Source: Wolbachia endosymbiont of Cimex lectularius
GTDB taxonomy: Bacteria > Pseudomonadota > Alphaproteobacteria > Rickettsiales > Anaplasmataceae
Reading direction: 5' to 3'
Assembly: GCF_000829315.1 (NCBI RefSeq)
Contig: NZ_AP013028.1
Location: 720,001-752,000 of the forward strand
DNA length: 32,000 nt
Shown here piece by piece: positions 7,161 through 31,473 of the stretch (its first letter is position 1; the number at the start of each line of letters is the position of its first letter). Made by a program: the position numbers and the translations under genes. The notes beneath the pieces were generated by a model. It searched no databases, had not been told where the DNA came from, and saw only the letters and a program-made list of their open reading frames with translations.

Positions 7161-7313
7161 CTAGGCATAAGTCAATCTGAGGAGCAGAAGCAAGTTTTGA
7201 CGCAAAATCGGAAAGAGGTTATGCAAGAGATCTATCAATGGCGTCAACTTAAGAACTTCCATTAGCAAACTCTCCTAAAGACATGATGGCGTTTGGGCTT
7301 ATCCATGTTACCC

Positions 7314-7623
7314 AATAGAAACGAAAAAAACTACTTGACAACCTTCACCAGTCCCCTTACAATAAAGTCGTGGGTGTTTTAGGCCTAAAATTTATCTTTA
7401 ATCTTGTATTAAGTGACAAAAGCACAGTATAAAACAAGGCGTGTTATGTTTTATTTTTGCAGCATGGACACTGCATGTCTTTATAATCTTTTGTCTACAT
7501 TAGCTGAGCCTCGCTTATTAAGCGGTGTAAGAGAGAATCGGACGCCAAGTTTTTGAGAGAACAGTAACAACTCACGTTGCGGGGTTTTTTTGTCTTTTTT
7601 TTAAATTAGTTAAAATTTTAACC
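7314..7623 (+). repeat. Promoter-bearing modular intergenic repeat, copy A (modules P-S-T)
   Basis: P: aatagaaacgaaaaaaactacTTGACA-17-TACAAT. S: ggcgtgttatgttttatttttgcagcatggacactgcatgtcttt (7438-7488). T: gctgagcctcgcttattaagcgg..acgccaag..gcggggtttttttgtctttttttt. Collinear with copies D and E. Confidence 0.8.
7335..7363 (+). promoter_or_regulatory. Near-consensus sigma70 promoter in repeat copy A
   Basis: TTGACA 7335-7340, exactly 17-bp spacer, TACAAT 7358-7363, with an upstream A-tract. Confidence 0.55.
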
Positions 7624-7640
7624 AATCTCATTTTTTTCAC

Positions 7641-7818
7641 AAAAAAACTGCTTGACAAGTTTCGACATTTCCCTTATCATAAATTATGGATATTTACAAT
7701 CCCAAGGTCAGCTACTTGTCAAGCGTATAAGGCATTAACGCCAAGTTCCTAAAATAGATATTGACCAGGGTTTCTTTTACCTTTTTTTTTATTTAGTAAA
7801 TTTTTTAAATATTAAAGC
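7641..7818 (+). repeat. Promoter-bearing modular repeat, copy B (modules P-T, no S)
   Basis: aaaaaaactgcTTGACA-17-TATCAT, then caagcgtataaggcattaacgccaag..aaaatagatattgaccagggtttcttttaccttttttttt..gtaaattttttaaatatta. This matches the second T module of copy D. Confidence 0.75.
7652..7680 (+). promoter_or_regulatory. Near-consensus sigma70 promoter in repeat copy B
   Basis: TTGACA 7652-7657, 17-bp spacer, TATCAT 7675-7680. Confidence 0.55.
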
Positions 7819-7852
7819 AATTTATGAACGAACATTTATTTTTGCAACAAAT

Positions 7853-8086
7853 GTTGTCATTCCAGCACCATAGGGTGTCATGCCAGTGGCCCAGACACTG
7901 GCATTCAGAAATTTTACTAAGTTGGTGAGTATAAAAGTAGCTGTTTTATGTTAAAATACGACGTTTTAATGATTATGGAAAGGCTGGATGCCAGTGTCGG
8001 AGCACTGGCATGACAAGAAAAGAGTGCTGGAACGACAGGAGGAGGGGCGCTGGAATGGCATCGTTTACTATGTTCATATTATAATG
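7853..8086. repeat. Hairpin-repeat cluster plus a ~160-bp composite repeat (7924-8086) just 3' of glmS
   Basis: gtcattccagcacc..ggtgtcatgccagtggcccagacactggcattc at 7853-7908. ggtgagtataaaagt..ggatgccagtgtcggagcactggcatgacaag..aggaggaggggcgctggaatggcatcgtttactatgttcatattataat is collinear with 31633-31757. Confidence 0.8.
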
Positions 8087-8118: not shown

Positions 8119-9939
8119 CTACTCAACCGTAACAGACTTAGCTAAATTTCTTGGACAATCAGCATCCAATCCTTTCTTGACTGCAGTAGTGTAAGCAAGA
8201 AATTGCATGGCAACACTGTAGATGATTGGAGAGATGAAATTATCAACGTCTGGGAGTTGTATTACGTCTTTACAAATCCCTCTTAGGAACGGCACTCCTT
8301 GCTTGTCACTAAAAGCGATCACTTTACCTTTTCTTGCTATAATTTCTTGTATGTTGGACAGCGTTTTAAAAAATAAATTGTCATATGGAATAATTGCTAT
8401 GACAAGTACAGATGAATCTATCAAAGCAATCGAACCGTGCTTCATCTCTCCCGCTGCAATACCGATGGTATTAATATATGAAAGTTCCTTTATTTTCAAT
8501 GCACCTTCCATTGCAACTCCATATGAGCTTCCTCTGCCGATTAAAATGATGCTGCTATGCTCTAGTATACTGTCTGATATATGTTGTATCTTCATCGCAT
8601 TTAAAACATGCTCAATATATTCTGGAATAGAGTTGATAGCATTACTCAGTTGCTTTATTCTCTTTTCATCCAACGTACCTTTTATTTTTGCAAGCTCTAA
8701 GGCAAGGCATGCTAAAATTGCAAGTTGCGCAGAAAAGGTTTTTGTTGAAGCAACACCAATTTCTGGTCCAGCAAGAGTATGTAACACGATATCTGAGATT
8801 CTTTCAATGCTGCTGCTGAATGTGTTAGTTAGGCTAATGATTGTTTGCTTCTGTGATTTTGCATAGCGCAATGCTTCCATGGTATCTGCAGTTTCGCCAG
8901 ATTGTGAGATGAATAATCCAATACTTCCCTTCTCCAACTTAATGTTGCTATACCTAAATTCCGACGAGATTTCCAGATACACTCGAACTTGGGCAATGCT
9001 TTCCAGCCAATATTTCGCTATTAGCCCAGCAAAATAAGACGACCCGCACCCAACTATGGTAATGTAACTAAGTTTAGAAAATAATTTTTTGTTGGCAGAT
9101 ATTGCCTCTGTATACTTTTTATAAAATTGATTTATTGTTTTATTTAATGCACAAGGCTGCTCAAAAATTTCTTTTAGCATGAAGCTAGAGTAACCGTTTT
9201 TGTTGATTACAAAGCTGCTTGAACTATTATTTTCTATACTGCGTTTAACTTGTGCACCGTTGTTGTATATACTCACCCCGCTAGATTTTATCACCGCAAC
9301 GTCGTCATCCTCTAGGTATGATATTCTGTCCACTAGTGCATTTAAGGTGTTAGAATCAGATGCGGCAAATACGGTGTTGCAGTTATAGCCTATCGCTAAA
9401 GGTAGGTTTCTTTTTGCAACAAATAGAGCATCTCTATATTCTGCAAACAATAGGACCAAAGCAAACGAGCCATGTAGGTTGCTTAAACACTTAAATAGAG
9501 AGTCAACAGGTGACAACCCTCCATTGAGATATAGGGTTAACATGTTTGGTATGACCTCTGTGTCGGTGTCAGTATGAAACGGCATTCCCCGTTCTTCTAG
9601 CCCCCTTTTCAGCAAATTGTAATTTTCAATTATACCGTTATGGGCAACAACAACATCATTTGTATGAATGGGATGAGCATTTTTAAGATCTGGAACTCCA
9701 TGTGTAGCCCAGCGAGTATGTGCTATGCCAACTGTGCTGCTAGACATCTTGCTGTTGCCAACAACTTCACATAACCTTTCGACTTTACCTTCTGATTTTT
9801 TAACCTCTATTTTGCCTTCATTGTTTATGATTGCTATGCCTGAAGAATCGTATCCCCTGTATTCCAATTTCTGCAACCCGGCCAGCAAAGTTGGTATTAC
9901 TGAATCACCGCTACTTACTACACCGAGTATTCCACACAC
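8119..9939 (-). CDS. glmS: Glutamine--fructose-6-phosphate aminotransferase (isomerizing)
   Basis: 606 aa. N-terminal MCGILGVV (catalytic Cys2 of Ntn amidotransferases), two SIS-domain regions, C-terminal ..NLAKSVTVE. Confidence 0.95.
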   Translation of the reverse strand: MCGILGVVSSGDSVIPTLLAGLQKLEYRGYDSSGIAIINNEGKIEVKKSEGKVERLCEVVGNSKMSSSTVGIAHTRWATHGVPDLKNAHPIHTNDVVVAHNGIIENYNLLKRGLEERGMPFHTDTDTEVIPNMLTLYLNGGLSPVDSLFKCLSNLHGSFALVLLFAEYRDALFVAKRNLPLAIGYNCNTVFAASDSNTLNALVDRISYLEDDDVAVIKSSGVSIYNNGAQVKRSIENNSSSSFVINKNGYSSFMLKEIFEQPCALNKTINQFYKKYTEAISANKKLFSKLSYITIVGCGSSYFAGLIAKYWLESIAQVRVYLEISSEFRYSNIKLEKGSIGLFISQSGETADTMEALRYAKSQKQTIISLTNTFSSSIERISDIVLHTLAGPEIGVASTKTFSAQLAILACLALELAKIKGTLDEKRIKQLSNAINSIPEYIEHVLNAMKIQHISDSILEHSSIILIGRGSSYGVAMEGALKIKELSYINTIGIAAGEMKHGSIALIDSSVLVIAIIPYDNLFFKTLSNIQEIIARKGKVIAFSDKQGVPFLRGICKDVIQLPDVDNFISPIIYSVAMQFLAYTTAVKKGLDADCPRNLAKSVTVE

Positions 9940-9966
9940 AACTAAATGAACCTTTCTTTAAAGTTA

Positions 9967-10398
9967 TCAGGCACTTTTGTTTTTATTGTCTTGCCCCTTT
10001 TTACTTTTATCTGGCTGATTTTTATTCTTTTTGTCGTCTTTCTCAATTTTACCTTTTTCAATTGGTTTGACTTGAGCTTCTTTGTTTAGAACTTCAGATA
10101 TAGCGGACTTTAGGACTTTTATCTCAACTTTTGGTGCTATTTCTACTATAAATTGTGCATTTGCTTCATCAACTTTGTTGACTGTACCTATTATTCCACC
10201 AGAAGTAGTAACGGTATCGCCGCGTTTTACTTGATCTATCATCTTTCTGAGTTCTTTTAATCTTTTGTGGTGCGGGCGGATAATGAAAAAATAAAACACC
10301 ACAACTATTAAAATCAATGGGATAAAATTAGCAAAAGATGCGCCAACACTTGATGCATTACTAGCTGCATCCGCTGCAAAAACTTCAGAAATGAACAT
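9967..10398 (-). CDS. yajC: Preprotein translocase subunit YajC with a long Lys-rich C-terminal tail
   Basis: IPLILIVVVFYFFIIRPHHKRLKELRKMIDQVKRGDTVTTSGGIIGTV matches the YajC signature. The tail KDDKKNKNQPDKSKKGQDNKNKSA looks extra compared with the shorter YajC proteins I recall (length from memory, not checked). Confidence 0.88.
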   Translation of the reverse strand: MFISEVFAADAASNASSVGASFANFIPLILIVVVFYFFIIRPHHKRLKELRKMIDQVKRGDTVTTSGGIIGTVNKVDEANAQFIVEIAPKVEIKVLKSAISEVLNKEAQVKPIEKGKIEKDDKKNKNQPDKSKKGQDNKNKSA

Positions 10399-10496: not shown

Positions 10497-10690
10497 TTTG
10501 CGGTAGCTGGCTGAATTTATATTTTTTAGCCATAGAAACAAAAAACTACTTGACAAATTTCTCCAGTTTTCTTATCATAAAACCGGAGGTATTCAGTTAT
10601 CTTCATCTATGCAGATTAAACGACAAGAGTATTATGGTTGGCGTTTTATGTTTAATTTTTTGCACTATGTGCACTTCATGTCTTTATTAA
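10497..10690 (+). repeat. Promoter-bearing modular repeat, copy C (modules P-S, no T)
   Basis: The left flank gcggtagctggctgaattt..ttttttagccatagaaac matches copy E. It is followed by TTGACA-17-TATCAT and the S module ggcgttttatgtttaattttttgcactatgtgcacttcatgtcttt (10640-10690). Confidence 0.8.
10550..10578 (+). promoter_or_regulatory. Near-consensus sigma70 promoter in repeat copy C
   Basis: TTGACA 10550-10555, 17-bp spacer, TATCAT 10573-10578. Confidence 0.55.
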
Positions 10691-10769
10691 TTTTATCTAG
10701 ACTTCTTGTGAACATAGAAAGTAGCTAATCTTAATTTAAAACACAATATTTTTAATTATTATGGAAAGA

Positions 10770-10866
10770 CTGGATCCCAGTGTCGGAGCACTGGGATGAC
10801 AAGAAAGGGAATACTTGGATGATATCGTCACAAAGGAACCAGCGTCAGACACTTGTATGACACCCT
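10770..10866. repeat. Hairpin repeats immediately 3' of the mutS stop
   Basis: ctggatcccagtgtcggagcactgggatgacaagaaagggaatacttggatgat, then ccagcgtcagacacttgtatgac. Same family as 405-439 and 7983-8040. Confidence 0.8.
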
Positions 10867-10872
10867 ACTCTC

Positions 10873-13392
10873 TCAAGCTTTCAGTTCCTCAAACACTTCA
10901 CTTGCTCTGTCAAGTACAGAATCAGGAAAGCCAGCGAGCTTTGCTACATGTATCCCATATGATTCATCTGCAACACCCTCAACTACTTCATGGAGAAAGA
11001 TTACTTTTCCGTTCCATTCTTTTATTTTCACACAAAAACATTTCACGTTCTTCAAGTATTTGCTTACTTTAGTTAGTTCATGATAATGAGTTGCAAAAAT
11101 GGCGCGGCACTTGTTTACATTGTGGATATGTTCAATCACTGCCTGAGCAATAGATAAGCCGTCATATACCCCTGTGCCTCTGCCGATTTCATCAAGTATC
11201 ACCAAGGAACGATCTGTTGCCTGATTGACTATGGTTGCTGTTTCAATCATCTCTACCATGAAGGTGGAATAACCAGCTGTTATATTATCTGTTGCACCAA
11301 CCCTGCTGAATATCTTGTCAATCACACCAATACGTGCACTATCTGCTGGCACAAATGACCCCATATGAGCTAAAATTGCGATGAGAGCGTTTTGCCTTAG
11401 AAAAGTGCTTTTTCCAGCCATATTAGGACCAGTGATTAGATGTATACCAGCTAAGTTAATGTTATTTGCGATAAACTTATCGTTAACTTCAACCACTGGG
11501 TGTCTTCCGCTGCAGATATTGAATTCTTTGCTATTATCAATAATGGGTTTTACGTAATTATTTTGCACTGCGAGCTCTGCAAATGCAGTTCGGATATCAA
11601 GTTTTGCCAAGGCATTTGCAGCGAGAGCAATCTTTTCAGATTCTTTAGCGATTTTACTACATAGTTCACTGAAAATTTTCATTTCTAAGCTGATTACAGC
11701 GTCACGTGCCGTGAGAATCTTATTCTCCAGTTCTTTCAATTCATTAGTAGTGTAGCGCATGCTATTTGCTAAGCTTTGCCTGTGAATAAATATGTCCGAG
11801 GTTAATTTATGATTTGCTGACACTTCAATGTAATAACCAATGATGTTGTTGTGCAATATTTTCAGTGCGGCAATGCCAGTCAGATCACGATAAGATTCTC
11901 GGAGTTTGGTTATCAATTTGTTGCTATTGTTGAGCACATAGGATAACTCTGATAATTCTTGGTTATACTTGGGGTTGATAAATCCTCCTTCCTTTGCGGA
12001 ACTTAGGTTGTTGTCAAGCACAGCGTCGTTTAGAAGCTCGAACAATTCTTTGTGATTGCCAAGGCTTTTATGTATTGTGCTAAGTTCACTCTCATCACTG
12101 CTTATCATCTGAGCAGTAGACACTGTTTCTTTTTCCTTTGATTCTACTGTCAAGCACTGGAATGACATCTGAAGGCTAGCTGCTGGTTTTTCACTTAAGT
12201 GATAACTATGTAAGGTGGACAGAAACTCGGACAACTCTAACGTTTTCCCAAGGCCTATTTTTAATAGGTTCATGTCCTTTGGTGAGCCACGCCCTAACAT
12301 TAAACGTGATAGTGACCTTTCAATATCTGGAATGTTAGATAATATCTCCCGTATTTTTTTGCGTGCTTCATGGCTGTTTACAAAAAATTCAACGGTGCCG
12401 AGTCTCAAATTAATCGCCTTAGGACAAGCAAGTGGTGATGCAAGCATTTGTTTGAGCAGGCGTCCACCAGAAGCTGTAACTGTGTGGTCAATAACTGAAA
12501 TCAGTGAACCCTTCTTTTCACCAAATTGAGTTGAAAACAACTCAAGATTTCTCCTTGCTGAAGCATCGATAAGCATGAAACTTTGTTGCCTGTAGGGCTT
12601 TGGCAGCTCAAGCCTTGGAATGGAACCCCTTTGAGTTACTCTGACATATTCAAGTAGCGCACCACATGCCACAACCTCCACTTTGCTGAAGTTTCCTATA
12701 ACTCCAAGCTCCCTGATTTTATAAAATTCGCACAGCGTTCTGTGAGACTTGTTATACTCAAAAAAACTCTGGGCATGCTGCGTAATTGATATTTTATAAT
12801 TTTTTAAAATTGACCTGATTTTTTCATCCTCAGCGAGCTTCTCGGAAATTAATAATTCTTTTGGTGATACACGCAATAAATCACTATCTAGGGCTTTCAA
12901 ATTCGTTAAAGTGTGAAAGAATTTTCCCGTTGATAGCTCAAGCCAGCCAATAGCATACTCTCCATTTTGTTCGACTATGGATGCAAGATAATTATTGCTT
13001 TTATCCTCCAGCAGCGAATCTTCGATAATTGTGCCTGGAGTTACAATTCGCACTACATCACGCTTTACTATGGATTTATAGCCCCTCCTTTTTGCTTCAT
13101 CAGCAGTTTCTAATTGATCGCAGATTGCAACTTTGAATCCTAAATCTATCAGTTTGTGCAGGTAAGATTCACTACTGTGTGCTGGCACTCCACACATTGG
13201 TATGTCTTGCCCGTATGAATTACCTCTTTTAGTGAGTACTATATTCAGCAGCTTTGCAGCTTTAACGGCATCATCGAAAAACAATTCATAGAAATCTCCC
13301 AGTCTATAGAACAACAGATGATCCTTATATTGAGCTTTCAGGTTTAAATATTGCTCCATCACAGGAGTGTTTTTTTCTCTTACAAAGTTCAT
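10873..13392 (-). CDS. mutS: DNA mismatch repair protein MutS
   Basis: 839 aa. N-terminal [19 protein letters not shown] mismatch-binding motif, Walker [14 protein letters not shown], and FATHYHEL. Confidence 0.95.
12139..12169. repeat. Degenerate hairpin-repeat copy embedded in frame in mutS
   Basis: ttgattctactgtcaagcactggaatgacatc. Its right half matches gtcaagcactgggatgacatc (415-437) with 1 mismatch; the left half is decayed. It translates as ..[11 protein letters not shown].. without breaking the ORF. Confidence 0.65.
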
Positions 13393-13698
13393 AATGTTTT
13401 TTATACGTTGATAGCTTCAGCTTTATCGTATGGATAACATAAAATCTAAATAGAAGCCTACACAAAAGCAAGATTGCTCGTTTCTTTAGAAAAACTGTAC
13501 ATATGTAATGAATCTTTTGCAGCCTCTTCTATAAGCTATATCAGCCATGCTAAAATTATATGGAATTTTGACTTTTTGAAAAGTCTAAACTGCTATTCGT
13601 GAAAGGTATGCATGATTGCATAAATTGGTTATGCAAAAGATCTATTAATTGCAAAATTTAATATAAGTGTTAAAATATGGCTACTGAGTAAAAAATAT

Positions 13699-17255: not shown

Positions 17256-18347
17256 ATGGGCTGGGATATATCAAGTAAGCAATCTGTAAATTCAAATGAA
17301 TTAAAAGATGATCAACAAGTTAAAAATGCAATATATGATACAAATGAGTACGGTAAAAAGCTTGCTGAAGAATGTGCAGGATCCGTGTTGCCAGATCAAG
17401 AGATACAGTGCAGTCAAGAGTGTATAGGAAATGTAGGCAGTCCAGCTGTCTTAGGTGGAAAAAAGCCTGCACGGTATTTTTCTAATCAGATGCATAACTT
17501 TGACGGCGGTGCTTTGACAGACCAAGCCGGCTTACAAAATTCAGAGTCTGATTACCGTTTGGGTCAGGATAGTGAACAACAAATTCTGGGGAGCAATGTA
17601 ATAACTAGTCTTTATAATTTACTTGATCCTTTAGAGTTGTTTCGTGAAGGATTGAGTAGAAGTAAAGATAGGCAAACTTTTAATAGTATCAAACCAAAAT
17701 TGCCAGCAGCTGACTATACAGGAGAAAGTAGTGATCAAAAAACTCTTACAGACAATACAAGTGAGCGCAGTACAGAAACTAAGAAAAGTAGTGGATGGAG
17801 CTCACGGCACGTTAATCAAGAAACTCGTTGGTCAGACGAAAATGGCGAGGGGCTAGATGCTAGGTCTAATTCTGAAGAGTGTCCGTCACCAGATACTGGC
17901 TCTAATAAAGGGTGTAGCCCACCACCAGACACTGATTCTGATTCAAGTGATGGAGATTCAGAAGAATGTAGCTCCATTGATGATAATCAGACAGTTTGTA
18001 CAAGTGATTGGGGCTCAGAGGGAGACTCGAGTGGCAGCTTAGATTATTTTTCTCTTCTGGAACTCCTAGAAAAAGACCCACCGTTAGCAGAAATACCATT
18101 AGCTGAAGATGAAAAGGAATTGATTAAAGATTTTTGTGAGAAGATAAAAGGTGTTAGGGAGGAAAACGGCCAAGAATACCAAAAGAATCTGTATAATCAG
18201 AGTATAAATTGTACGAGAAATGCTTTAAAGCGTATAAAAGATTTAGTAGATAATTTGCCACAAGAGATAAGGTTAAACTCACTCTGTGATGGTCATGAAT
18301 ATACTGTATCGGGTTTAGTACTTGAGGTAATATTAGAACCTGTTTAA
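17256..18347 (+). CDS. Hypothetical acidic Ser/Asp/Gly/Pro-rich protein, 3' end truncated by an IS (stop codon supplied by the IS terminal repeat)
   Basis: 363-aa ORF with no recognisable domain. Low-complexity acidic core SPPPDTDSDSSDGDSEECSSIDD. The last codons ..LEPV* are read from the IS end gaacctgtttaa. Confidence 0.6.
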   Translation: MGWDISSKQSVNSNELKDDQQVKNAIYDTNEYGKKLAEECAGSVLPDQEIQCSQECIGNVGSPAVLGGKKPARYFSNQMHNFDGGALTDQAGLQNSESDYRLGQDSEQQILGSNVITSLYNLLDPLELFREGLSRSKDRQTFNSIKPKLPAADYTGESSDQKTLTDNTSERSTETKKSSGWSSRHVNQETRWSDENGEGLDARSNSEECPSPDTGSNKGCSPPPDTDSDSSDGDSEECSSIDDNQTVCTSDWGSEGDSSGSLDYFSLLELLEKDPPLAEIPLAEDEKELIKDFCEKIKGVREENGQEYQKNLYNQSINCTRNALKRIKDLVDNLPQEIRLNSLCDGHEYTVSGLVLEVILEPV

Positions 18348-18658
18348 AATCTTGGAAATGTGAGGTAAAGTAAGCATAGATTAATAATGAGGTGTCTATG
18401 CAGAAAAGTTATCCAAGTAATATAAGTCAAGAGCAGTTTGAAAAAATCAGGCCAATTTTGGAGAGTAGCAAGCAGAAAACAAAACCAAGAAAACTTGATT
18501 TGTATGACGTATTTTGTGGGGTGTTGTACGTCTTAAAAAGTGGTTGTCAGTGGAGGATGTTACCAAAGGGTTTTCCAAGATGGGAAAGCGTATATTACTA
18601 TTTTCGAGTGTGGAGTAAAAAGAATGGAGAAGAGCCAAGCTTGTTGGAATTAGTCTTA
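18336..18658 (+). mobile_element. Truncated IS5-family element (5' 323 bp only), + orientation
   Basis: Identical to the first ~320 bp of the full copy: IR gaacctgtttaaaatcttggaaatgtgagg and transposase N-terminus MSMQKSYPSNISQEQFEKIRPIL..SLLELVL. It ends at gtcTTA, where the IR of the next copy begins. Confidence 0.9.
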
Positions 18659-19518
18659 GAACCTGTTTAAAATCTTCGTAACAGGAGAGAAATGAAGGAG
18701 AGGACTATCATCTGTAAGCTAGTGTTGAGCTTCCGCTCGCAATTTTTCCACAATCGCCTGCACTTTTCTAACCAGGCAAAAGAGCGTTCAACAACCCATC
18801 TTTTTGGCAATACAACGAAAGTGTGTAACTCACTTCGCTTTATTACTTCAACAGTCGCACCAATGATAGCTTTTATTTGTGTTGCAAAATTTTCTCCTGT
18901 GTAGCCAGCATCAACCAGTATGTTTTTAACTTCAGAGAGGTTTGCTTTAGCATTTTCGACCATTTTCACAGCACTGCTACGGTCAGTTGCTTCTGCCGTT
19001 GTTACATAAATTGCATGTGGCAAACCTTGTGTATCAACTGCAATATGGCGCTTTATCCCTGAAATCTTTTTACCTGCATCATAGCCTTTTTTTTCAGCAG
19101 TATCTGCGTTTTTAACGCTTTGAGAATCAATTATACAAAAGCTAGTTTTCTCTTTCCGACCATTGCTGATACGGACCTCTCCAACTAATTTTTTTTAAGA
19201 CTAATTCCAACAAGCTTGGCTCTTCTCCATTCTTTTTACTCCACACTCGAAAATAGTAATATACGCTTTCCCATCTTGGAAAACCCTTTGGTAACATCCT
19301 CCACTGACAACCACTTTTTAAGACGTACAACACCCCACAAAATACGTCATACAAATCAAGTTTTCTTGGTTTTGTTTTCTGCTTGCTACTCTCCAAAATT
19401 GGCCTGATTTTTTCAAACTGCTCTTGACTTATATTACTTGGATAACTTTTCTGCATAGACACCTCATTATTAATCTATGCTTACTTTACCTCACATTTCC
19501 AAGATTTTAAACAGGTTC
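18659..19518 (-). mobile_element. Full-length IS5-family (ISWpi1-like) insertion sequence, 860 bp
   Basis: 18-bp perfect terminal inverted repeats gaacctgtttaaaatctt at both ends. Flanked by TTA (18656-18658) and TTA (19519-19521). Encodes a DDE transposase. Confidence 0.9.
18667..19462 (-). CDS. IS5-family DDE transposase in two frames (orfA 19142-19462; the second frame runs to 18667), joined at an A8 run
   Basis: orfA carries an HTH-like N-terminus. The downstream frame reads LVGEVRISNGRKEKTSFCIIDSQSVKNAD..ILVDAGYTG..VVERSFAWLEKCRRL (DDE motifs). The frames differ by +1 at the T8 run on the + strand (19189-19196). Confidence 0.85.
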
Positions 19519-19520
19519 TT

Positions 19521-19652
19521 ATGGATATTGCTAGAAAAATCGGTGTAAGATATGCGACTCTTTCTGCGTCAAGTGGTTCAGGATATCGAATCTATGAGCG
19601 CTTGGGGTTTCATACGTTTGGTCAATTTGAGTGTTTTGAATGGAGGAATTAA
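19521..19652 (+). pseudogene. C-terminal fragment of a GNAT N-acetyltransferase, 5' part removed at the IS junction
   Basis: ..DIARKIGVRYATLSASSGSGYRIYERLGFHTFGQFECFEWRN* has typical GNAT C-terminal beta strands and starts directly at the IS boundary. Confidence 0.6.
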
Positions 19653-20062: not shown

Positions 20063-20140
20063 TGCGCGGTATTTCTAACGTTGGTGATACCAATTCCACT
20101 ACACAGAAAGCGGACAGACAACAGTGGAAAAAAGCTACCC

Positions 20141-20595
20141 AATAGAAACAAAAAAACTACTTGACAAACTCCTTTAGTTCCCTTATCATAGTGTTGAAGC
20201 TATTTGTTTAACTTCCCAATCTGTACAGGTTAAAATGACAAGAGAGCTTGTATTTGGCGTACTATTGTTTAATTTTTCGCACTATGTGCACTGCATGTCT
20301 TTTTAAAACTTCGGGTTTTTACCCATACAAGCTGAAACGCGCTTATAAGTCGTTTAAGACATCACCCAACGCCGGATTTTAAAATAGAGAGTGGAATAAC
20401 TAGCTACCTCGGGGTTTTATTGTCCTTTTTCTCTGTCTGGTAAATTTCTTAAATATTATAGCTTAGACTAGTTGCGTTTAAAAGCAGCTAAATTTCAGCA
20501 TTTAAGACATAAAAACGCCAATACTAAAAATAAATACCGACCAGGGCTTCTTTTGCTTTTTTCTCCATTTGGTAAGTTTCTTAAGTATTTATTAC
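20141..20595 (+). repeat. Promoter-bearing modular repeat, copy D (modules P-S-T-T)
   Basis: aatagaaacaaaaaaactacTTGACA-17-TATCAT, S module 20256-20308, T module 20331-20460, and a second T module at about 20490-20595. By eye, closely similar to copy E across the S and T modules. Confidence 0.85.
20161..20189 (+). promoter_or_regulatory. Near-consensus sigma70 promoter in repeat copy D
   Basis: TTGACA 20161-20166, 17-bp spacer, TATCAT 20184-20189. Confidence 0.55.
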
Positions 20596-20603
20596 TAAAG
20601 TAG

Positions 20604-20642
20604 TATCCTGGAATGACAAGAAGGGAGTACTTGGATGACACA
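20604..20642. repeat. Hairpin-repeat fragment
   Basis: tatcctggaatgacaagaagggagtacttggatgacac matches the ..gggatgacaagaaagggaatacttggatga portion at 10793-10822. Confidence 0.7.
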
Positions 20643-20823
20643 CTTTGTTGTGAGCTCACTTTTACTCTATGATTACCTTTTTAGAGCATCTTGTCTATCC
20701 ATTTCACCATTACGCTGAAATGGTACTTTCCTGTGATTTCAAACATTCGGTAAGTGTACAGTCCGCACAGGTTACAAGGTAAAGAAACAACGTCTACGAG
20801 TAAAATTTCACATTACCACTTTT

Positions 20824-21621: not shown

Positions 21622-23583
21622 CTACCTATTTGTCAATTCACACAATTCTAAGGAAGAGTTTTCTAACTTGGCGATAGCATTATTGATTTCACTCAAATCA
21701 TTTCCTTGTAAAGCTTTTTTTGCGTTTTGCAGTAGATTTTTTAACCTTTGATCAGAGGAAAGACTATTATCGTTTTCAATCAAATGTATGAGTTTGTTGC
21801 CATTAATTTTAGCTTCTGCAAGGGAACGGGCCTTCATATCTTCATCAAAGTTGTTTATTGACTGGTTAACCATATCTTGAACATCGGCTTCACTTAAGCC
21901 AAAACTTGAATTTATTTCAACTACTTGCTCAATCCCAGTGGTTTTTTCTCGTGCAGTAACAGTCAATATTCCGTCAACATTAACTGTGAACTCTATCTCA
22001 ACTCTTGCAGAACCTGCAGGCAGTGGTGGTATACCTTTGAGTTCAAACTGCGCTAGAGATTTGTTATCTTCTATCATTTCACGTTCTCCCTGACAAACGT
22101 GAATTTTCATTGCCGTTTGCCCATCGACATAAGTTGTAAACTCTTTTGTTTCTGAAACTGGCAATGGCGTATTTCTTGGTATGATTTTTTCAACTATTCC
22201 TCCCATAGTTTCTATGCCAAGTGATAAAGGTAAAACGTCCAAGAGAATGTTCCTATCTTTTGAGCTTGAAGTTAAATAATGAGCCTGCAAGGCTGCCCCA
22301 ATAACAACTGCTTTATCTGGATCTACATCATTCAGTACCTTATTTCCAAAGAGCTTGACTAGTGAGTCGTGAACTAATGGCACTCTAGTTGCACCACCAA
22401 CTAAAATTACTCCTTTTATGTCATCAATTTTAAGATCTATATCGTCTATAGTACGAGTAACTATATTGACAGTCTTATTAACCAAGGGACTTATTGCTTG
22501 CTCGAATTCTTCTTTGGTAATTTCGCATTTAAATAATACACCATTAGCAGCACAATCTGGTGTCATTCCAGCGCGTGACGCTGGAATCCACATATTTTTT
22601 CTTTCCTGGATCCCAGTGTCAGCTACTTGGATGACAGGAGAAAGTCTAATATTAAATTTAAAAGTACCTGATGTATTTTCACTTAGGTATTCTTTTACAG
22701 TACGTAATTCAATAAGTGATGGCCCTGCCATACAAGTAGCTGACGCTGGAATCCAGTTCTTATTATATAACTTTCTGGTATGTTCATTTGCAATCAAGTT
22801 TTCTGGATCCCAGTGTCTGGGCACTGGGATGACACTTTCGGTTGAACCCACCTGTTCTCTATACTTATCGAGCACGATTGAACTTAGCAGATGGTCAAAA
22901 TCATCACCACCAAGTTTGGTATCACCACCAACTGCAAGAACTTGAAACACTCCTTGGTGTAATTTCAATATTGAAATATCAAATGTTCCGCCACCGAGGT
23001 CATAAACTGCATATATTCCACTGTTGTTGTTCTTTTCAATCGAATAAGAAAGCGCGGCGGCGGTTGGCTCGTTAATAAGGCGCAGAACTTCTATACCAGC
23101 TAATTTCGCTGCATACTTAGTTGCATTACGTGCTGGATCGTCAAAGTAAGCTGGCACAGTAATCACTGCTTTTTTTACTTCTATTCCCGTAGACTTTTTT
23201 ACCCTCTCACATAGAGCTTTCAATATCTCAGCAGATATTTCAACAGGAGTAAGATATTTCTCCTCTGCGCATTTTACCCTAATAACTTTTTCACTTTCGT
23301 TATCTATTTCAAAATTAACGCCTTCTTTGTGCAAGTCTTCAACACTTTTACCCATTAGGCGTTTTATCGAGTAAATTGCATCTGGGCCAACATCGTAGCC
23401 GATTTTCAATATGTTATTTTCATATGAAAGAGTAGAAGACAGTAGCTCACGTCCTTGTTCATCTTTAAATATCTCCACGTCACCAGCTTTATTCACTATA
23501 GCAATTAAAGAATTGGTAGTGCCGAGGTCTATACCAAACACTGTTTCATTTGAATTTGGTTCAGAAATTTGTATTGGCTGCAT
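21622..23583 (-). CDS. hscA: Fe-S cluster assembly chaperone HscA (Hsp70 family) carrying in-frame repeat insertions
   Basis: 653 aa. Hsp70 motifs GIDLGTTNS, DLGGGTFD and VILVGGATRVP. Sits last in the iscU-iscA-hscB-hscA cluster. Confidence 0.93.
   Translation of the reverse strand: MQPIQISEPNSNETVFGIDLGTTNSLIAIVNKAGDVEIFKDEQGRELLSSTLSYENNILKIGYDVGPDAIYSIKRLMGKSVEDLHKEGVNFEIDNESEKVIRVKCAEEKYLTPVEISAEILKALCERVKKSTGIEVKKAVITVPAYFDDPARNATKYAAKLAGIEVLRLINEPTAAALSYSIEKNNNSGIYAVYDLGGGTFDISILKLHQGVFQVLAVGGDTKLGGDDFDHLLSSIVLDKYREQVGSTESVIPVPRHWDPENLIANEHTRKLYNKNWIPASATCMAGPSLIELRTVKEYLSENTSGTFKFNIRLSPVIQVADTGIQERKNMWIPASRAGMTPDCAANGVLFKCEITKEEFEQAISPLVNKTVNIVTRTIDDIDLKIDDIKGVILVGGATRVPLVHDSLVKLFGNKVLNDVDPDKAVVIGAALQAHYLTSSSKDRNILLDVLPLSLGIETMGGIVEKIIPRNTPLPVSETKEFTTYVDGQTAMKIHVCQGEREMIEDNKSLAQFELKGIPPLPAGSARVEIEFTVNVDGILTVTAREKTTGIEQVVEINSSFGLSEADVQDMVNQSINNFDEDMKARSLAEAKINGNKLIHLIENDNSLSSDQRLKNLLQNAKKALQGNDLSEINNAIAKLENSSLELCELTNR
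22568..22835. repeat. Three hairpin-repeat insertions inside the hscA reading frame
   Basis: ggtgtcattccagcgcgtgacgctggaatcc and ggatcccagtgtcagctacttggatgac at 22570-22655. gctgacgctggaatccag at 22740-22765. ctggatcccagtgtctgggcactgggatgac at 22803-22833. They translate as VIPVPRHWDPENL, NWIPASATCMA and SPVIQVADTGIQERKNMWIPASRAGMTPD. Confidence 0.85.
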
Positions 23584-27361: not shown

Positions 27362-27490
27362 AAATCTCTTACATAACCTGCTTTCTGATTTTGCGTCAAA
27401 ATTTGCTTACACTTTTCCCAAGTATTCTGCAGTGCTCATCTGCGTTTCTCCTAAAAATTCCTCACCATAAACTGGTTGTGCAAGAGATCC
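27362..27490. repeat. Small (~130 bp) element bounded by imperfect terminal inverted repeats (MITE-like)
   Basis: aaatctcttacataacc (27362-27378) pairs with ggttgtgcaagagatcc (27474-27490). Pieces recur at 7190-7245 (gttttgacgcaaaatcggaaagaggttatgcaagagatct), 13628-13645 and 31760-31812. Confidence 0.55.
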
Positions 27491-27565
27491 ATTATAGCGC
27501 AATTATGGGTACTTTGCGCATGCATGGATTTTAACATAATCTAATGAGCAGTTAGTTGAGATTGC

Positions 27566-28800: not shown

Positions 28801-29155
28801 CTGCGCGGTAGCTAGCTGAATTCAGATTTTTTAGCAATAGAAACAAAAAAACTACTTGACAAGTTCCTCCAAACCCATTATTATAAGGTTGAAGCTATTA
28901 TTTATCTTCAGTCTGTGCAGATTAAACGACAAAAAAACTTAGTATATCTGGCGTACCATGTTTAATTTTTTGCACTATGTGCACCGTATGTCTTTTTAAA
29001 ACTTCTGGTTTTTTACCTATACAAGCTGAAACGCGTTTATAAGTCGTTTAAAACATAAAAAAACGCCAATATTATAGGATAGATAGTAAATAACTAGCTA
29101 CCGGAGTTTCTTTTGCTGTTTTTTCTCTATTCGGTAAATTTCTTAAATTTTATAG
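28801..29155 (+). repeat. Promoter-bearing modular repeat, copy E (modules P-S-T)
   Basis: The left flank gcgcggtagctagctgaattcagattttttagcaatagaaac matches copy C. TTGACA-17-TATTAT, S module 28950-29000, T module 29024-29155. Confidence 0.85.
28856..28884 (+). promoter_or_regulatory. Near-consensus sigma70 promoter in repeat copy E
   Basis: TTGACA 28856-28861, 17-bp spacer, TATTAT 28879-28884. Confidence 0.55.
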
Positions 29156-29174
29156 TTAAACTGGATCCCAGATG

Positions 29175-29203
29175 TTGACAAAAGCCTAGGTTAATCGTAT
29201 AAT
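29175..29203 (+). promoter_or_regulatory. Perfect-consensus sigma70 promoter (TTGACA-17-TATAAT) in front of the J-like gene
   Basis: TTGACA 29175-29180, 17-bp spacer aaagcctaggttaatcg, TATAAT 29198-29203. The -10 ends 4 nt before ATG 29208, so the transcript may start at or after that ATG. Confidence 0.55.
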
Positions 29204-29207
29204 TAAT

Positions 29208-29471
29208 ATGGTAACACCACTAAAAAGTATAATAAAACAGGTGTATGAAGTACGTGGGGGGTTTATGCTTATTGGTCATTATGAAGCAGGGATAGAGAGA
29301 AACGCTACTCAGAACGAGATAAAAAAAGCATATCATAAATTAGCAATGGAATATCATCCAGGTAAAAATTCTGATGGCGCAGAGGAATTAAAAAATATAA
29401 AAGGATCATATAGGTGCTATTTAATTGATACTTACTCGCCGTGTTATTCTTTTTCAATACAAATATTATGA
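29208..29471 (+). CDS. Degenerate J-domain-like ORF (HPD replaced by HPG), separated by a frameshift from the downstream ORF
   Basis: ..NATQNEIKKAYHKLAMEYHPGKNSDGAEELKNIKGSYRCYLID resembles J-domain helices II-III. The helix IV-like sequence (TRRVILFQYKYYEQLKGG) continues in the +1 frame. The functional start may be ATG 29265. Confidence 0.55.
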   Translation: MVTPLKSIIKQVYEVRGGFMLIGHYEAGIERNATQNEIKKAYHKLAMEYHPGKNSDGAEELKNIKGSYRCYLIDTYSPCYSFSIQIL

Positions 29472-29490
29472 ACAGTTAAAAGGAGGTCAT

Positions 29491-31473
29491 ATGGACAAAG
29501 AGACTACTAAAGCTATGTCTGCAGGATGTAGTGAACTAGACGTTACGAGATCTGTAAATTTTCTTGGGTCTGTTCTACTCTATCAGATGAATTTAGAAAA
29601 CGCATTAGTTTCACTTGGTTTTTCTTATAACACTTTAAGCGAACTGGATAAAGAGTTGAACCAAGTAAGAGAGCAGAATTATAGTGAAAAAGCACTGGAA
29701 ATGTATGAAAAACGCTTTAATGGAGTATTTAGAAGCAAGTATAGAAAGCTAAGCCTTGAATATAGGAATGATGGGAAAAAGACAAAGAACTTAAACAACA
29801 TGAAAAAGATAATGGAAGAACTATATGAAACATCAAAAGAGAGAGATAATTTTAGATATGTACTGTTTTCTGGAATAGCATTTGATTTATTATATCAGAA
29901 TAGAAAAAAATGTGCAACTTTAATAAACGAGAGTGTAGTAGCCGAACTGAGGAACTTGACTATTTGGCGTCAAACTGACCTAATGCATTATCGTAACGAC
30001 TTCTTAAAGAAAGCACAAGAATACCTTAATAGTTATAGAAATAGCCTGTGTAAAAATGAACAAATAGAGAAGGATTTTGGTAAATTGCAGGAATGGTATG
30101 TCAAAAAATATGAGAAAGATTGGTACAATAAATTGATTGAATTAAACAGTCGATGCAATAGTGATAAAAAGCTGAAGGCTATAAAAGGTGAAGTTGATAA
30201 TCTTGTAAAGAGGAGTAGTGAACAACTTAACATATTAAGAAATGTAGTCGAAAGAAAGTATGAACATAGTGCAAATGTATTAAATCAGATGCTTTCACTA
30301 ACTCCAACTATTTTAAAAAAGGATAGTAGTGTTAAAACTAAGGGATCTGATTTACGGAAAAAAGCCCCTTCCAACATTTCTGAAAAAGGTCAGCACATAG
30401 ACGAGGCCATTGATAGGTGCTTTGTGTCTCCGATATTAGAATATATCTATGTCACAAAAGTGTATAAAGAGCTGTTAGGAGGGGGTGATCTAACCATCAG
30501 AAATTCAGTCAAGGAATTTAGAGACTGTGTAAAAGCAAAGAGAACAGAAGAGTTTAACATCCAGAGTAAGATGAACAATTATTCGCTTAAGGAATTACAA
30601 ACAAAAATTGAAGCATTGAGAAATTTCTTATTTTATCAAGAAAATTTAAGCCTACAGGAAAAAGAAATAGAGAAGTATATTAACAATAATCAGTCAAGAG
30701 CAAAAGTAATATTAGTGCAGATGCTGGAAAGATGTGGGAAGCTTTTGGGAGAGGAATTCAAGGAGGAAAAGACATGGTTTAAAAGAGTAGGAGAGAAAAT
30801 AGAAAAGGAACGAAAAGCAACAGAGCAAGCAAATGCAAGGGCAGAACAGGAAGCTCAAAGGGCAGGACATATTAATAAGGTGAGTAAGATTTTTTTAAGA
30901 AAAATATATAGTCTTGGTGATGAGTTGCAAGATATAGTGGTGGAAAGTCAAGATGAAATTGTAGATGCGATCGTACAACGCATTATGGAATGTAGCTTTT
31001 CTCCACAACAAATACTGGATGCAATAATTGAAGAAATAAAATCTAATGAAGACCAAGTTAGAAGGGAGGGTAAAGTTAATGCTGAACTAATTGAAAATGT
31101 AATGAGAGGTTTTATAGTTGCAGTAGATGAAGAGCAAATTGAACCGAATACGGACATAGAAGGTGCTTGTAAATCTGAACATGAGGAAGAATTAGAATCA
31201 CAAAAAAGCTTAGATGACGATCAAAATAGTACAGAAAGGAACAAGTTGCTTATTATAACTGCTTCCGCTTCCGTTGGCTTATTGTTGGGCCTGAGCATAG
31301 CATATCTTGCAGGAGCTGCTACTTTGACTCCTATTGGTGCTGTTACGGTATTTGTTACAGCTGCAGTAGTTGGTACATCGGTAGGGTATGGTATCGGAAA
31401 GTTTTATGAGAAGGTTAGTAGCAAACTCTCTGATGTATCTACTGGACATTCTAAACTAGAGCTACTGGTGTAA
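29491..31473 (+). CDS. Large Lys/Glu-rich coiled-coil protein with an internal degenerate J-like domain and a C-terminal double-TM hairpin
   Basis: 660 aa from ATG 29491, preceded by aaggagg with 4-nt spacing; the ORF track starts at TTG 29425. KYRKLSLEYRNDGKK..MKKIMEELYETSKERDNFRY is J-like. Hydrophobic tail LLIITASASVGLLLGLSIAYLAGAATLTPIGAVTVFVTAAVVGTSVGYGIG. Confidence 0.7.
   Translation: MDKETTKAMSAGCSELDVTRSVNFLGSVLLYQMNLENALVSLGFSYNTLSELDKELNQVREQNYSEKALEMYEKRFNGVFRSKYRKLSLEYRNDGKKTKNLNNMKKIMEELYETSKERDNFRYVLFSGIAFDLLYQNRKKCATLINESVVAELRNLTIWRQTDLMHYRNDFLKKAQEYLNSYRNSLCKNEQIEKDFGKLQEWYVKKYEKDWYNKLIELNSRCNSDKKLKAIKGEVDNLVKRSSEQLNILRNVVERKYEHSANVLNQMLSLTPTILKKDSSVKTKGSDLRKKAPSNISEKGQHIDEAIDRCFVSPILEYIYVTKVYKELLGGGDLTIRNSVKEFRDCVKAKRTEEFNIQSKMNNYSLKELQTKIEALRNFLFYQENLSLQEKEIEKYINNNQSRAKVILVQMLERCGKLLGEEFKEEKTWFKRVGEKIEKERKATEQANARAEQEAQRAGHINKVSKIFLRKIYSLGDELQDIVVESQDEIVDAIVQRIMECSFSPQQILDAIIEEIKSNEDQVRREGKVNAELIENVMRGFIVAVDEEQIEPNTDIEGACKSEHEEELESQKSLDDDQNSTERNKLLIITASASVGLLLGLSIAYLAGAATLTPIGAVTVFVTAAVVGTSVGYGIGKFYEKVSSKLSDVSTGHSKLELLV

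Follow-up and report, generated by a model that had tools for sequence, protein, structure and literature searches.

A dispersed intergenic repeat of Wolbachia with its own promoter as a candidate family of small RNA genes

A modular intergenic repeat was identified in a 32,000-nucleotide stretch, here called the window, of the genome of the Wolbachia endosymbiont of Cimex lectularius (contig NZ_AP013028.1, positions 720,001 to 752,000; coordinates below are window positions unless another genome is named). Five copies, A to E, are built from a promoter module (P) followed by S and T modules. Homologous units in wMel start transcripts just downstream of this promoter, and each unit is probably a small non-coding RNA gene that belongs to a dispersed family.

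Repeat units in the window

The window carries, in order, aspS, an MFS gene, infC, thrS, copies A and B, glmS, yajC, copy C, mutS, rnd and coaE; further along a GNAT gene, copy D, lepB, hscA and hscB; and then ftsY, radA, qor, tRNA-Pro, copy E and a DnaJ-domain gene. Its closest YajC sequences (98%) come from the Wolbachia of Madathamugadia hiepei, followed by those of Melophagus and Menacanthus. These three are supergroup F strains, and the genome in the window probably belongs to supergroup F as well.

A preliminary description of this DNA had reported five intergenic sites with the promoter pattern TTGACA-17-TAYNAT. TTGACA-N17-TAYNAT has six matches in the window, all on the + strand (7335, 7652, 10550, 20161, 28856 and 29175), compared to 0.09 occurrences expected from dinucleotide shuffles, and none of 100 shuffles reached six. 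The first five matches each head a repeat unit, which confirms the five sites. The match at 29175 lies outside the repeat and is an ordinary promoter-like site directly 5' of a DnaJ-domain open reading frame (ORF). Repeat finding, MAFFT alignment and nhmmer module profiles agree on a count of five P, four S and five T modules, neither more nor fewer, and place every one on the + strand, and the alignment and profiles bear out the module sets that had been assigned to the five copies. The S module starts 62-76 nt 3' of the -10 hexamer. Identity among the window copies is 60-83% for P, 74-92% for S and 50-80% for T, values that mark them as old paralogues on sequence grounds. All five nevertheless keep the exact promoter geometry. 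The units and the parts of copy D, the canonical full-length unit, are as follows.

7314-7626, + strand: copy A, P-S-T, divergent subfamily; -35 at 7335-7340, -10 TACAAT at 7358-7363, predicted transcription start site (TSS) at 7370
7631-7817, + strand: copy B, P-T; -35 at 7652-7657, -10 at 7675-7680
10529-10705, + strand: copy C, P-S; -35 at 10550-10555, -10 at 10573-10578, predicted TSS at 10585
20140-20595, + strand: copy D, P-S-T-T; same architecture as 24 complete copies elsewhere
28835-29155, + strand: copy E, P-S-T; -35 at 28856-28861, -10 TATTAT at 28879-28884, predicted TSS at 28891
20141-20204, 20255-20303, 20318-20461 and 20464-20590, + strand: modules P, S, T1 and T2 of copy D (nhmmer)
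20150-20156, + strand: A-tract just 5' of the copy D promoter
20161-20189, + strand: copy D promoter; -35 TTGACA at 20161-20166, 17-bp spacer, -10 TATCAT at 20184-20189
20196, + strand: predicted TSS of copy D, a G 6 nt after the -10, aligned with wMel TSSs
20196-20215, + strand: predicted 5'-terminal hairpin of copy D from +1, GAAGCUA...UAACUUC (24 distinct registers)
20218-20231, + strand: possible second leader hairpin or palindrome of copy D, AAUCU-GUAC-AGGUU; folds in many but not all copies, on weaker evidence
20253-20260, + strand: predicted 5' arm of the long-range helix of copy D, UUUGGCGU, at the S module start (RNAalifold, pair counts)
20369-20376, + strand: predicted 3' arm of the same helix, ACGCCGGA, in T1 (RNAalifold, pair counts)
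20332-20358, + strand: predicted T1-core hairpin of copy D, CUGAAACGCGCUUAUAAGUCGUUUAAG, the best conserved stretch of the element
20415-20436, + strand: U-rich tract closing T1, candidate 3' end of a transcript of ~220-240 nt (from sequence)
20548-20569, + strand: U-rich tract closing T2, candidate 3' end of a transcript of ~350-375 nt (from sequence)
20603-20645, + strand: WPE-type palindromic repeat directly 3' of copy D

Family distribution and transcription starts

The family was surveyed with two scans. A scan of species-representative genomes with the P pattern gave at least 16 Wolbachia/Rickettsiales loci among the matches listed, most matches being strong Firmicutes promoters, and a metagenome scan with the T1 core added 42 loci, mainly from termite guts. 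Family counts refer to these sampled loci (381 kb) together with local samples of complete genomes. Module counts over the 381 kb are 80 P, 73 S and 108 T. Among complete forms P-S-T-T, the canonical unit, is the most frequent (24 copies); the other forms are P-S-T (12), P-S (9), P (7), S-T-T (5), T (4) and P-T (3). Draft contigs often break inside the element, which indicates many similar copies per genome.

In complete genomes sampled around lepB and yajC, members are present in group B, wBpa (supergroup D, three copies in 20 kb), wOv (supergroup C), Candidatus Wolbachia massiliensis and, as a fragment, group A. Members in wMel (group A) are known from TSS tables. The preliminary description had proposed mapping the repeat across relatives, and the matches place it in a Wolbachia-wide family, with members in supergroups A, B, C and D and in F-like strains. 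Single 20-kb samples of wFol, Candidatus Mesenet and Ehrlichia chaffeensis held no family member, a sample too small to establish absence. The sampled loci elsewhere are not orthologous to the window sites. Subfamilies are common to several strains, and on the radA side group B and supergroup D carry a copy that agrees in subfamily and orientation. At 58 loci the element has no recurrent protein-coding neighbour, and none of the sampled copies has an internal ORF or a split form with an ORF between P/S and T. The T1 core had 0 matches in viral contigs, hence there is no sign that the element rides phage WO.

Orientation is not a family trait. The preliminary description had treated the shared strand of the five copies as meaningful, a chance of 1 in 16, but neighbouring copies in other genomes share a strand in 13 cases and lie on opposite strands in 25. 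Copies A and B are also a tandem pair and do not count independently. GC skew in the window tracks gene orientation and gives no replichore signal.

The repeat is absent from Rfam. Rfam searches of the repeat sites at E<=10 returned chance-level matches only (10-16 bits, compared to cut-offs of 43-440), so the units are not fragments of an RNA family in Rfam 15, a source that the preliminary description had named for checking. Keyword and literal-sequence searches of the searchable literature found no description of the family, and the wMel genome paper lists 158 unnamed repeat families without characterising this one. The family is new in the sense that it is outside Rfam, is unnamed in the literature searched and has its start sites recorded only in a supplementary table. 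Unusually, the family is modular, high in copy number and equipped with a near-consensus promoter of its own, yet shows no transposon hallmarks.

Conservation of the promoter was measured on 72 distinct P modules. Mean identity is 98.6% in the -35, 92.6% in the -10 and 89.6% in the A-tract, compared to 71.5% in the spacer and 71% in the discriminator. Exactly TTGACA-17-TAYNAT is found in 61 of the 72, and no spacer of 16 or 18 bp occurs. Hexamers at 93-99% identity against a spacer at 71%, with the spacing fixed at 17 bp, support the earlier proposal of selection on promoter function. The accompanying statement that geometry is kept while the spacer varies was half right: the spacer is far less conserved than the hexamers, but it does not vary freely and has a consensus of its own, CCTTCRCCAGYYCCC, with ~71% identity. 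The hexamers and spacing fit a sigma-70 promoter (17 +/- 1 bp), and initiation ~6 nt after the -10, within the 5-9 nt expected of such promoters, is known from the wMel homologues.

Transcription starts of wMelPop-CLA were mapped by Cappable-Seq, and Table S1 of that study gives the sequence around each 5'-triphosphate start (PMC12558409). Three of its entries are family members: oTSS 131390(-), iTSS 713865(+) and iTSSps 1067756(+) (PMC12558409). Term counts in the table point to a possible fourth. In the tabulated sequences, each has TTGACA-17-TATCAT upstream, and the leader plus GGCGUCUCAUGUUUAAUUUUUUGCACUAUGUGCAC or a variant, and the S module, downstream. Initiation is at a G that follows the -10 by ~6 nt, or at the base preceding it, and the 5'-triphosphate ends of the three homologues agree with the start 6-9 nt after the -10 that had been predicted. 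These wMel units therefore have 5'-triphosphate starts of their own, apart from the flanking genes. The promoter and start site are thus shown in the wMel homologues; for the window they are predicted by alignment, which puts +1 of copy D at 20196.

The three wMel starts have 40-69 counts per million (cpm) after removal of multi-mapping reads by the authors (PMC12558409). Four hours after a temperature shift to either 34 C or 21 C, two of the three are up ~3-5 fold, and the rise is transient, with levels back at baseline afterwards; the log2 fold changes at 4 h are +2.4/+2.4 and +1.4/+1.6 (PMC12558409). The family starts appear in the supplementary table only and are not discussed by the authors (PMC12558409). 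None of the wMel and wAlbB Cappable-Seq tables lists an antisense TSS of the family (PMC12558409). A small 'hypothetical protein' (wMel 713812-714012, WD_RS06600) and the WD1118 pseudogene (1067756) are annotated over family members, which is why these starts are classed as 'internal' and not as orphan. The wAlbB copy beside an MFS gene has a decayed -35 and, in the tabulated data, a weak 5' end on the sense strand where the T1 hairpin begins. The strongly expressed wAlbB orphan TSS 402708 (+), at 758 cpm, has the P-like promoter AAATGCAAAAAAATACTTGACA...TATTAT and a leader with TCTGCAGA (PMC12558409, Table S2). There is no S module within 100 nt of it in the sequence given, and it may be a diverged, highly active supergroup B relative of the family. 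The promoters and transcripts of ncrwMel02 and of the strong 915,471 start are unrelated to the family.

RNA structure and decay of orthologous copies

RNA structure was analysed with RNAalifold on 34 distinct units. The first 19-20 nt from +1 are predicted to form the 5' hairpin, GAAGCUA...UAGCUUC and variants. In 24 distinct registers, U lies opposite all A-to-G changes in the 5' arm, the two C-to-U changes in the 3' arm lie opposite G or A, and the variants fit sense-strand pairing alone. A second palindromic hairpin, AAUCU-GUGC-AGAUU, is present in many copies. A long-range helix, UUUGGCG..U / ACGCCAAU, is predicted to enclose S and the T1-core hairpin. The T1 hairpin is kept, with registers that differ between subfamilies. 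Pair counts for the long helix and the T1 hairpin show 91.9% of cells paired, compared to 29-41% with the partners slid. In the long helix, G.U occurs 33 times and A.C 5 times, an asymmetry that favours pairing on the sense strand.

Covariation had been proposed as a check, and it returned a divided answer. Compensatory changes are found in some divergent copies, those of supergroups D and C, for example a G-C to A-U change in the wBpa long helix. The overall score is modest, 0.125 compared to 0.100 in shuffles, and none of 500 shuffles reaches it, a result to be read with the tool's warning that related sequences can beat every shuffle without structure; just 6 pairs change on both sides. These data show RNA-level constraint in part.

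The conserved part of the unit had been described as non-coding, and the S module bears this out. An ATG ORF starts in S in 24 of 34 copies, usually with 13 aa and in some with 16 or 33-37 aa, and the ATG is missing in the other 10, copy D included. The 34 copies have no conserved frame or length for this ORF and no Shine-Dalgarno sequence. Judged by sequence, the units are non-coding.

Decay of the element is visible in a close relative, Wolbachia sp. C61_2 (locus L177), which is syntenic with the window and has housekeeping proteins ~94-95% identical. It carries positional orthologues of copies C and A. The orthologue of C keeps its T module, hence copy C of the window is a deletion derivative (~239 nt). 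Copy B is absent at the C61_2 site, which makes B a ~190-nt insertion or duplication in the lineage of the window. Both orthologues have broken promoters. In C, TTGACA has become ATAACA and TATCAT has become TGTCAT; in A, the -35 is lost and TACAAT has become TAAAGT. The neutral yardstick between the two genomes is 6.9% at glmS third codon positions and 4-7% in flanking intergenic DNA. Divergence of the dead C61_2 copies, by part of the element, is as follows.

Promoter core: 14-31%
Discriminator and 5' hairpin: 23-31%
S: 15-20%
T1 core: 8%

The changes lie on the C61_2 branch because the window copies match the subfamily consensus. Read from the alignment, they are mostly G/C to A/T, an excess expected once selection on G/C positions is released in an AT-biased genome. 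Gene conversion could be an alternative cause of the faster-than-neutral divergence of the orthologues. The mutS gene next to copy C is an intact 839-aa ORF in the window (10873-13392) and a heavily degraded pseudogene in C61_2 (L177 6801-9301), where fragments are mostly 43-57% identical and no gene is called in the region. The decay of mutS in C61_2 coincides with dead promoters in both neighbouring P-S-T copies.

Function and spread of the family

We favour the reading that each unit is an autonomous small non-coding RNA gene in a dispersed set of paralogues found across Wolbachia, with selection acting on the promoter and 5' structure, and we consider it probable though far from certain. 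The A-tract and near-consensus sigma-70 promoter start transcription at the G ~6 nt after the -10, as measured in the wMel homologues and predicted here by alignment. The RNA is predicted to open with the 5'-terminal hairpin, followed by the second small hairpin and an A-rich linker, with modest support from covariation. A 5'-terminal hairpin typically stabilises transcripts. The next domain would be closed by the long-range helix UUUGGCGU/ACGCCAAU around the S module and the conserved T1 hairpin. Termination may occur in the U-rich tract of T1 or T2, or at the following WPE palindrome, and would give an RNA of ~220-240 or 350-375 nt. Such an RNA may act in trans as a regulator, by base-pairing or protein binding. 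Shorter forms (P-S, P-T, S-T-T and others) would be deletion or duplication derivatives of P-S-T-T, as the comparison with C61_2 shows for copies B and C.

Several results weigh against this reading. The measured starts are those of wMel homologues, the window's own being predicted by alignment, and the wMel copies are expressed at a moderate rather than a high level. Truncation or promoter decay affects many copies (group B, wBpa, wOv and both C61_2 orthologues), so individual copies are dispensable, and copy number is very uneven between lineages, as for a selfish repeat. The modest covariation and the warning attached to it count here too, and the predicted fold of the complete copy D transcript does not exceed shuffled sequence in stability (z = -0.22). 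Transcripts had been predicted to end at the T-rich tract, which is unproven: a scan of the window found no intrinsic terminator on the + strand, RNAalifold predicted no 3' terminator hairpin, and mean z for the 3' domain is -0.4. The U-rich tracts are candidate 3' ends.

The 3' flanks of the units are shared with another repeat. Of 46 complete units, at least 16 have a WPE-type palindrome in the 200 nt that follow them, and of 60 units none has one on the upstream side, compared to ~3% expected by density. These palindromes may help to end the transcript; copy D folded together with its WPE as a terminator was not significant (z = +0.66). Palindromes of this type were seen 3' of units at 7850-8060, 10750-10860, 20603-20645 and 29157-29172 in the window and at loci L018, L131, L136, L155, L162 and others elsewhere. 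The P, S and T modules do not contain the WPE core (CCCAGTG...CACTGGG / TGGGATGACA). Two stereotyped continuations recur after units: one is 'actaaagtagtatcctggatcccagtg...cactgggatgaca', the other an additional repeat module, 'ttgcaattcatgaacgaacatttatttttacaacaaatggtgtcattccagcgcgtgacgctggaatc'. Several repeat families together make up the intergenic arrays.

The most serious competitor is a selfish or neutral dispersed repeat, comparable to pneumococcal BOX, Neisseria Correia and Rickettsia/Wolbachia palindromic elements, that is non-autonomous and spreads by recombination, gene conversion or an undetected transposase. Its active promoter would be incidental and kept by processes acting on the element, such as concerted evolution, and its transcript would be functionless. 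We hold this rather unlikely. It would account for the high and uneven density, ~1 per 6 kb here and in termite-gut contigs compared to three or four mapped TSSs in wMel, for the common modular truncations and decayed copies in several lineages, and for the insertion or duplication of B and the deletion in C between close relatives. The close, directional association with WPE fits it as well, and gene conversion could produce the rapid divergence of the orthologues. Copy D points the same way. It lies at a site of variable gene order 5' of lepB; groups A and B, wBpa (supergroup D) and Candidatus Wolbachia massiliensis have no element at this site, and the gene 5' of lepB is a different one each time. 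Against a selfish repeat stand its ends: no terminal inverted repeats join them, no target-site duplication is seen, and the left boundaries are fuzzy with alternative upstream modules (10 copies aligned with 100-nt flanks). There is no recurrent transposase ORF in or beside the repeat at 58 loci, and no split 'autonomous' form. The copies within a genome are old (P 60-83%) with no recent burst, and subfamilies and some positions, such as the radA-side copy in groups B and D, are conserved across supergroups. Conservation of hexamers and spacing together with sense-strand pairing is hard to explain without selection on transcription and RNA. An insertion sequence (IS), a miniature inverted-repeat transposable element (MITE) or an autonomous parent was rejected on the testable features, namely inverted ends, target duplication, transposase and split form. 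RNA-mediated (retro-)copying was rejected by reasoning: the promoter upstream of +1 would be missing from an RNA copy, yet nearly all copies carry P.

A further reading gives the copies a joint role. The P-S-T-T units would be genus-wide sibling regulatory RNAs whose stress-responsive pooled output titrates a shared RNA or protein target, with copy number as dosage control. Copies are few in wMel and number perhaps >=100 in supergroup F-like strains by extrapolation from local density. We regard this proposal as unlikely. If it were true, it would partly offset the fact that Wolbachia has few protein transcription factors; the promoter, 5' hairpin and closed S/T1 domain would be the selected parts, and promoter-dead copies would decay fast, as in C61_2.

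The preliminary description had offered two roles, a multi-copy small RNA gene or a portable promoter. The first is supported and the second is disfavoured. As a portable promoter, P would drive adjacent downstream protein genes and S and T would be a 5' untranslated region (UTR) or leftover. Copies D and E do lie 5' of the co-oriented lepB and DnaJ-domain genes, and the tabulated wAlbB pTSS 1189275 has a P-like promoter and a related leader before a collagen-like gene with a 255-nt 5' UTR. However, lepB and the DnaJ-domain gene have promoter-like sites of their own at 20807 and 29175, and the genes ahead of copies A, B and C (glmS, mutS) run in the convergent direction. Across loci the first downstream ORF is convergent in 21 cases and co-oriented in 10, and for the upstream ORF the counts are 50 tandem and 26 divergent. 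These counts show that units tend to follow gene 3' ends and are not gene promoters as a rule. One or two U-rich T modules also close the canonical unit before any gene. A portable promoter is very improbable.

A small protein or type I toxin-antitoxin-like system, in which S encodes a hydrophobic peptide (MFNFLHYVH...) under antisense RNA control, draws on the ATG ORF in 24 of 34 copies, the basic C-terminus of the 33-37 aa variants and a minus-strand promoter-like site at the T1/T2 junction (20482-20455), but it is largely refuted and scarcely credible given the unconserved ORF, the lack of an antisense TSS in the wMel and wAlbB tables and substitutions that track RNA pairing, not codons.

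The preferred reading, an autonomous RNA gene family, places the units among multi-copy bacterial small RNA genes or transcribed intergenic repeats. The Bartonella Brt family, genus-specific multi-copy small RNAs of ~200 nt, each with its own sigma-70-type promoter, is alike in belonging to an alphaproteobacterial host-associated genus and in consisting of paralogous, genus-restricted intergenic RNA genes with own promoters and no known homologue in general RNA databases. Brt RNAs lie directly 5' of a small Xre-type regulator gene and have a clear terminator, whereas the Wolbachia units have no recurrent neighbour gene and no robust terminator, and their copy number can be far higher. Pneumococcal BOX elements are modular boxA-boxB-boxC intergenic repeats that are transcribed and able to form RNA structure. 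They resemble the units in being dispersed, intergenic and transcribed, with copies that differ in module subsets and numbers. BOX is not known to have a promoter of its own and is regarded as mobilised in a MITE-like way, whereas the Wolbachia units bring a near-consensus promoter and a defined start. Neisseria Correia elements (CREE/NEMIS) are 100-155 bp with terminal inverted repeats and a duplicated TA target. They are likewise small, abundant intergenic repeats able to carry functional -35/-10 boxes, but the Wolbachia units have neither terminal inverted repeats nor the TA duplication. WPE and Rickettsia palindromic elements share the genomes and intergenic neighbourhoods of the units and form composite arrays with them. 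WPE are palindromic, have no promoter and can insert in-frame into genes (hscA here), whereas the units lack a palindromic structure, all copies examined are strictly intergenic and, as the wMel homologues indicate, transcription comes from their own promoter. The described Wolbachia transcripts ncrwmel01, ncrwmel02, WsnRNA-46 and WsnRNA-59 are also intergenic with own start sites, but they have no sequence relationship to the family and the literature describes them as single loci. A link to Woolfit's highly transcribed 'WD0187/mutS' region was not established; in the group A genomes sampled, yajC adjoins rpsB and glmS, not mutS, and no element lies at this place.

Wolbachia is not genetically manipulable and has few protein regulators, which leaves control of its gene expression an open question, one with consequences for cytoplasmic incompatibility, for virus blocking in mosquitoes and for anti-filarial therapy. 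The hitherto unnoticed genus-wide, multi-copy non-coding family, with its experimentally active promoters, offers a concrete candidate for regulation by RNA that can be put to the test. Its native promoter and 5' leader are compact, have a moderate measured activity and could be used as parts of future Wolbachia expression constructs. The family also explains a class of 'orphan', 'internal' and pseudogene-associated starts and spurious small 'hypothetical proteins', and accounts for many contig breaks in draft Wolbachia assemblies. Differences in copy number and presence or absence could serve as strain markers.

Other features were noted in the window. At the gathering threshold, Rfam reports WsnRNA46 (206-454, - strand) and tRNA-Pro in the whole window and nothing else. 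The WsnRNA46 match (RF02625) scores 68.6 bits, compared to a gathering score of 65.3, and because it sits among WPE-like palindromes the Rfam family may in effect describe the WPE repeat. At 18332-19522, a 330-nt inverted repeat, 99% complementary, has arms made of IS4/5-family N-terminal fragments (DUF4096) around a DDE-domain fragment. It is a scrambled IS5-family remnant, unrelated to the P-S-T repeat.

The hscA-hscB-iscA-iscU-ftsY block 3' of lepB is kept in group A, B, C and D strains and in Candidatus Wolbachia massiliensis, and is not kept in wFol. The upstream gene differs in every strain sampled (L165-L168 and L171-L172, ~9400-10000), which marks the spacer 5' of lepB as a recurrent rearrangement breakpoint. 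The hscA gene (21622-23583, - strand) has an in-frame WPE insertion at residues 251-285 (TIGR02697, E = 2e-26), and HscA has 653 aa in the window compared to 585-631 aa in the other supergroups sampled.

The promoter-like site at 29175, TTGACA-17-TATAAT, ends 4 nt before the ATG (29208) of the DnaJ-domain ORF (29175-29471 region), which has either a leaderless mRNA or a mis-placed start codon. This 87-aa ORF overlaps a 682-aa ORF (29425-31473) in a different frame. The two may be one frameshifted gene, since wFol has a single 675-aa DnaJ and ankyrin protein near lepB (L171). Another short repeat, AAGCAAGTTTTGACGCAAAATCGGAAAGAGGTTATGCAAGAGATCTATCAATGGC, occurs at 7188-7242 (5' of copy A), at 13622-13652 (5' of rnd) and, partly inverted, at 27381-27499 (5' of radA).

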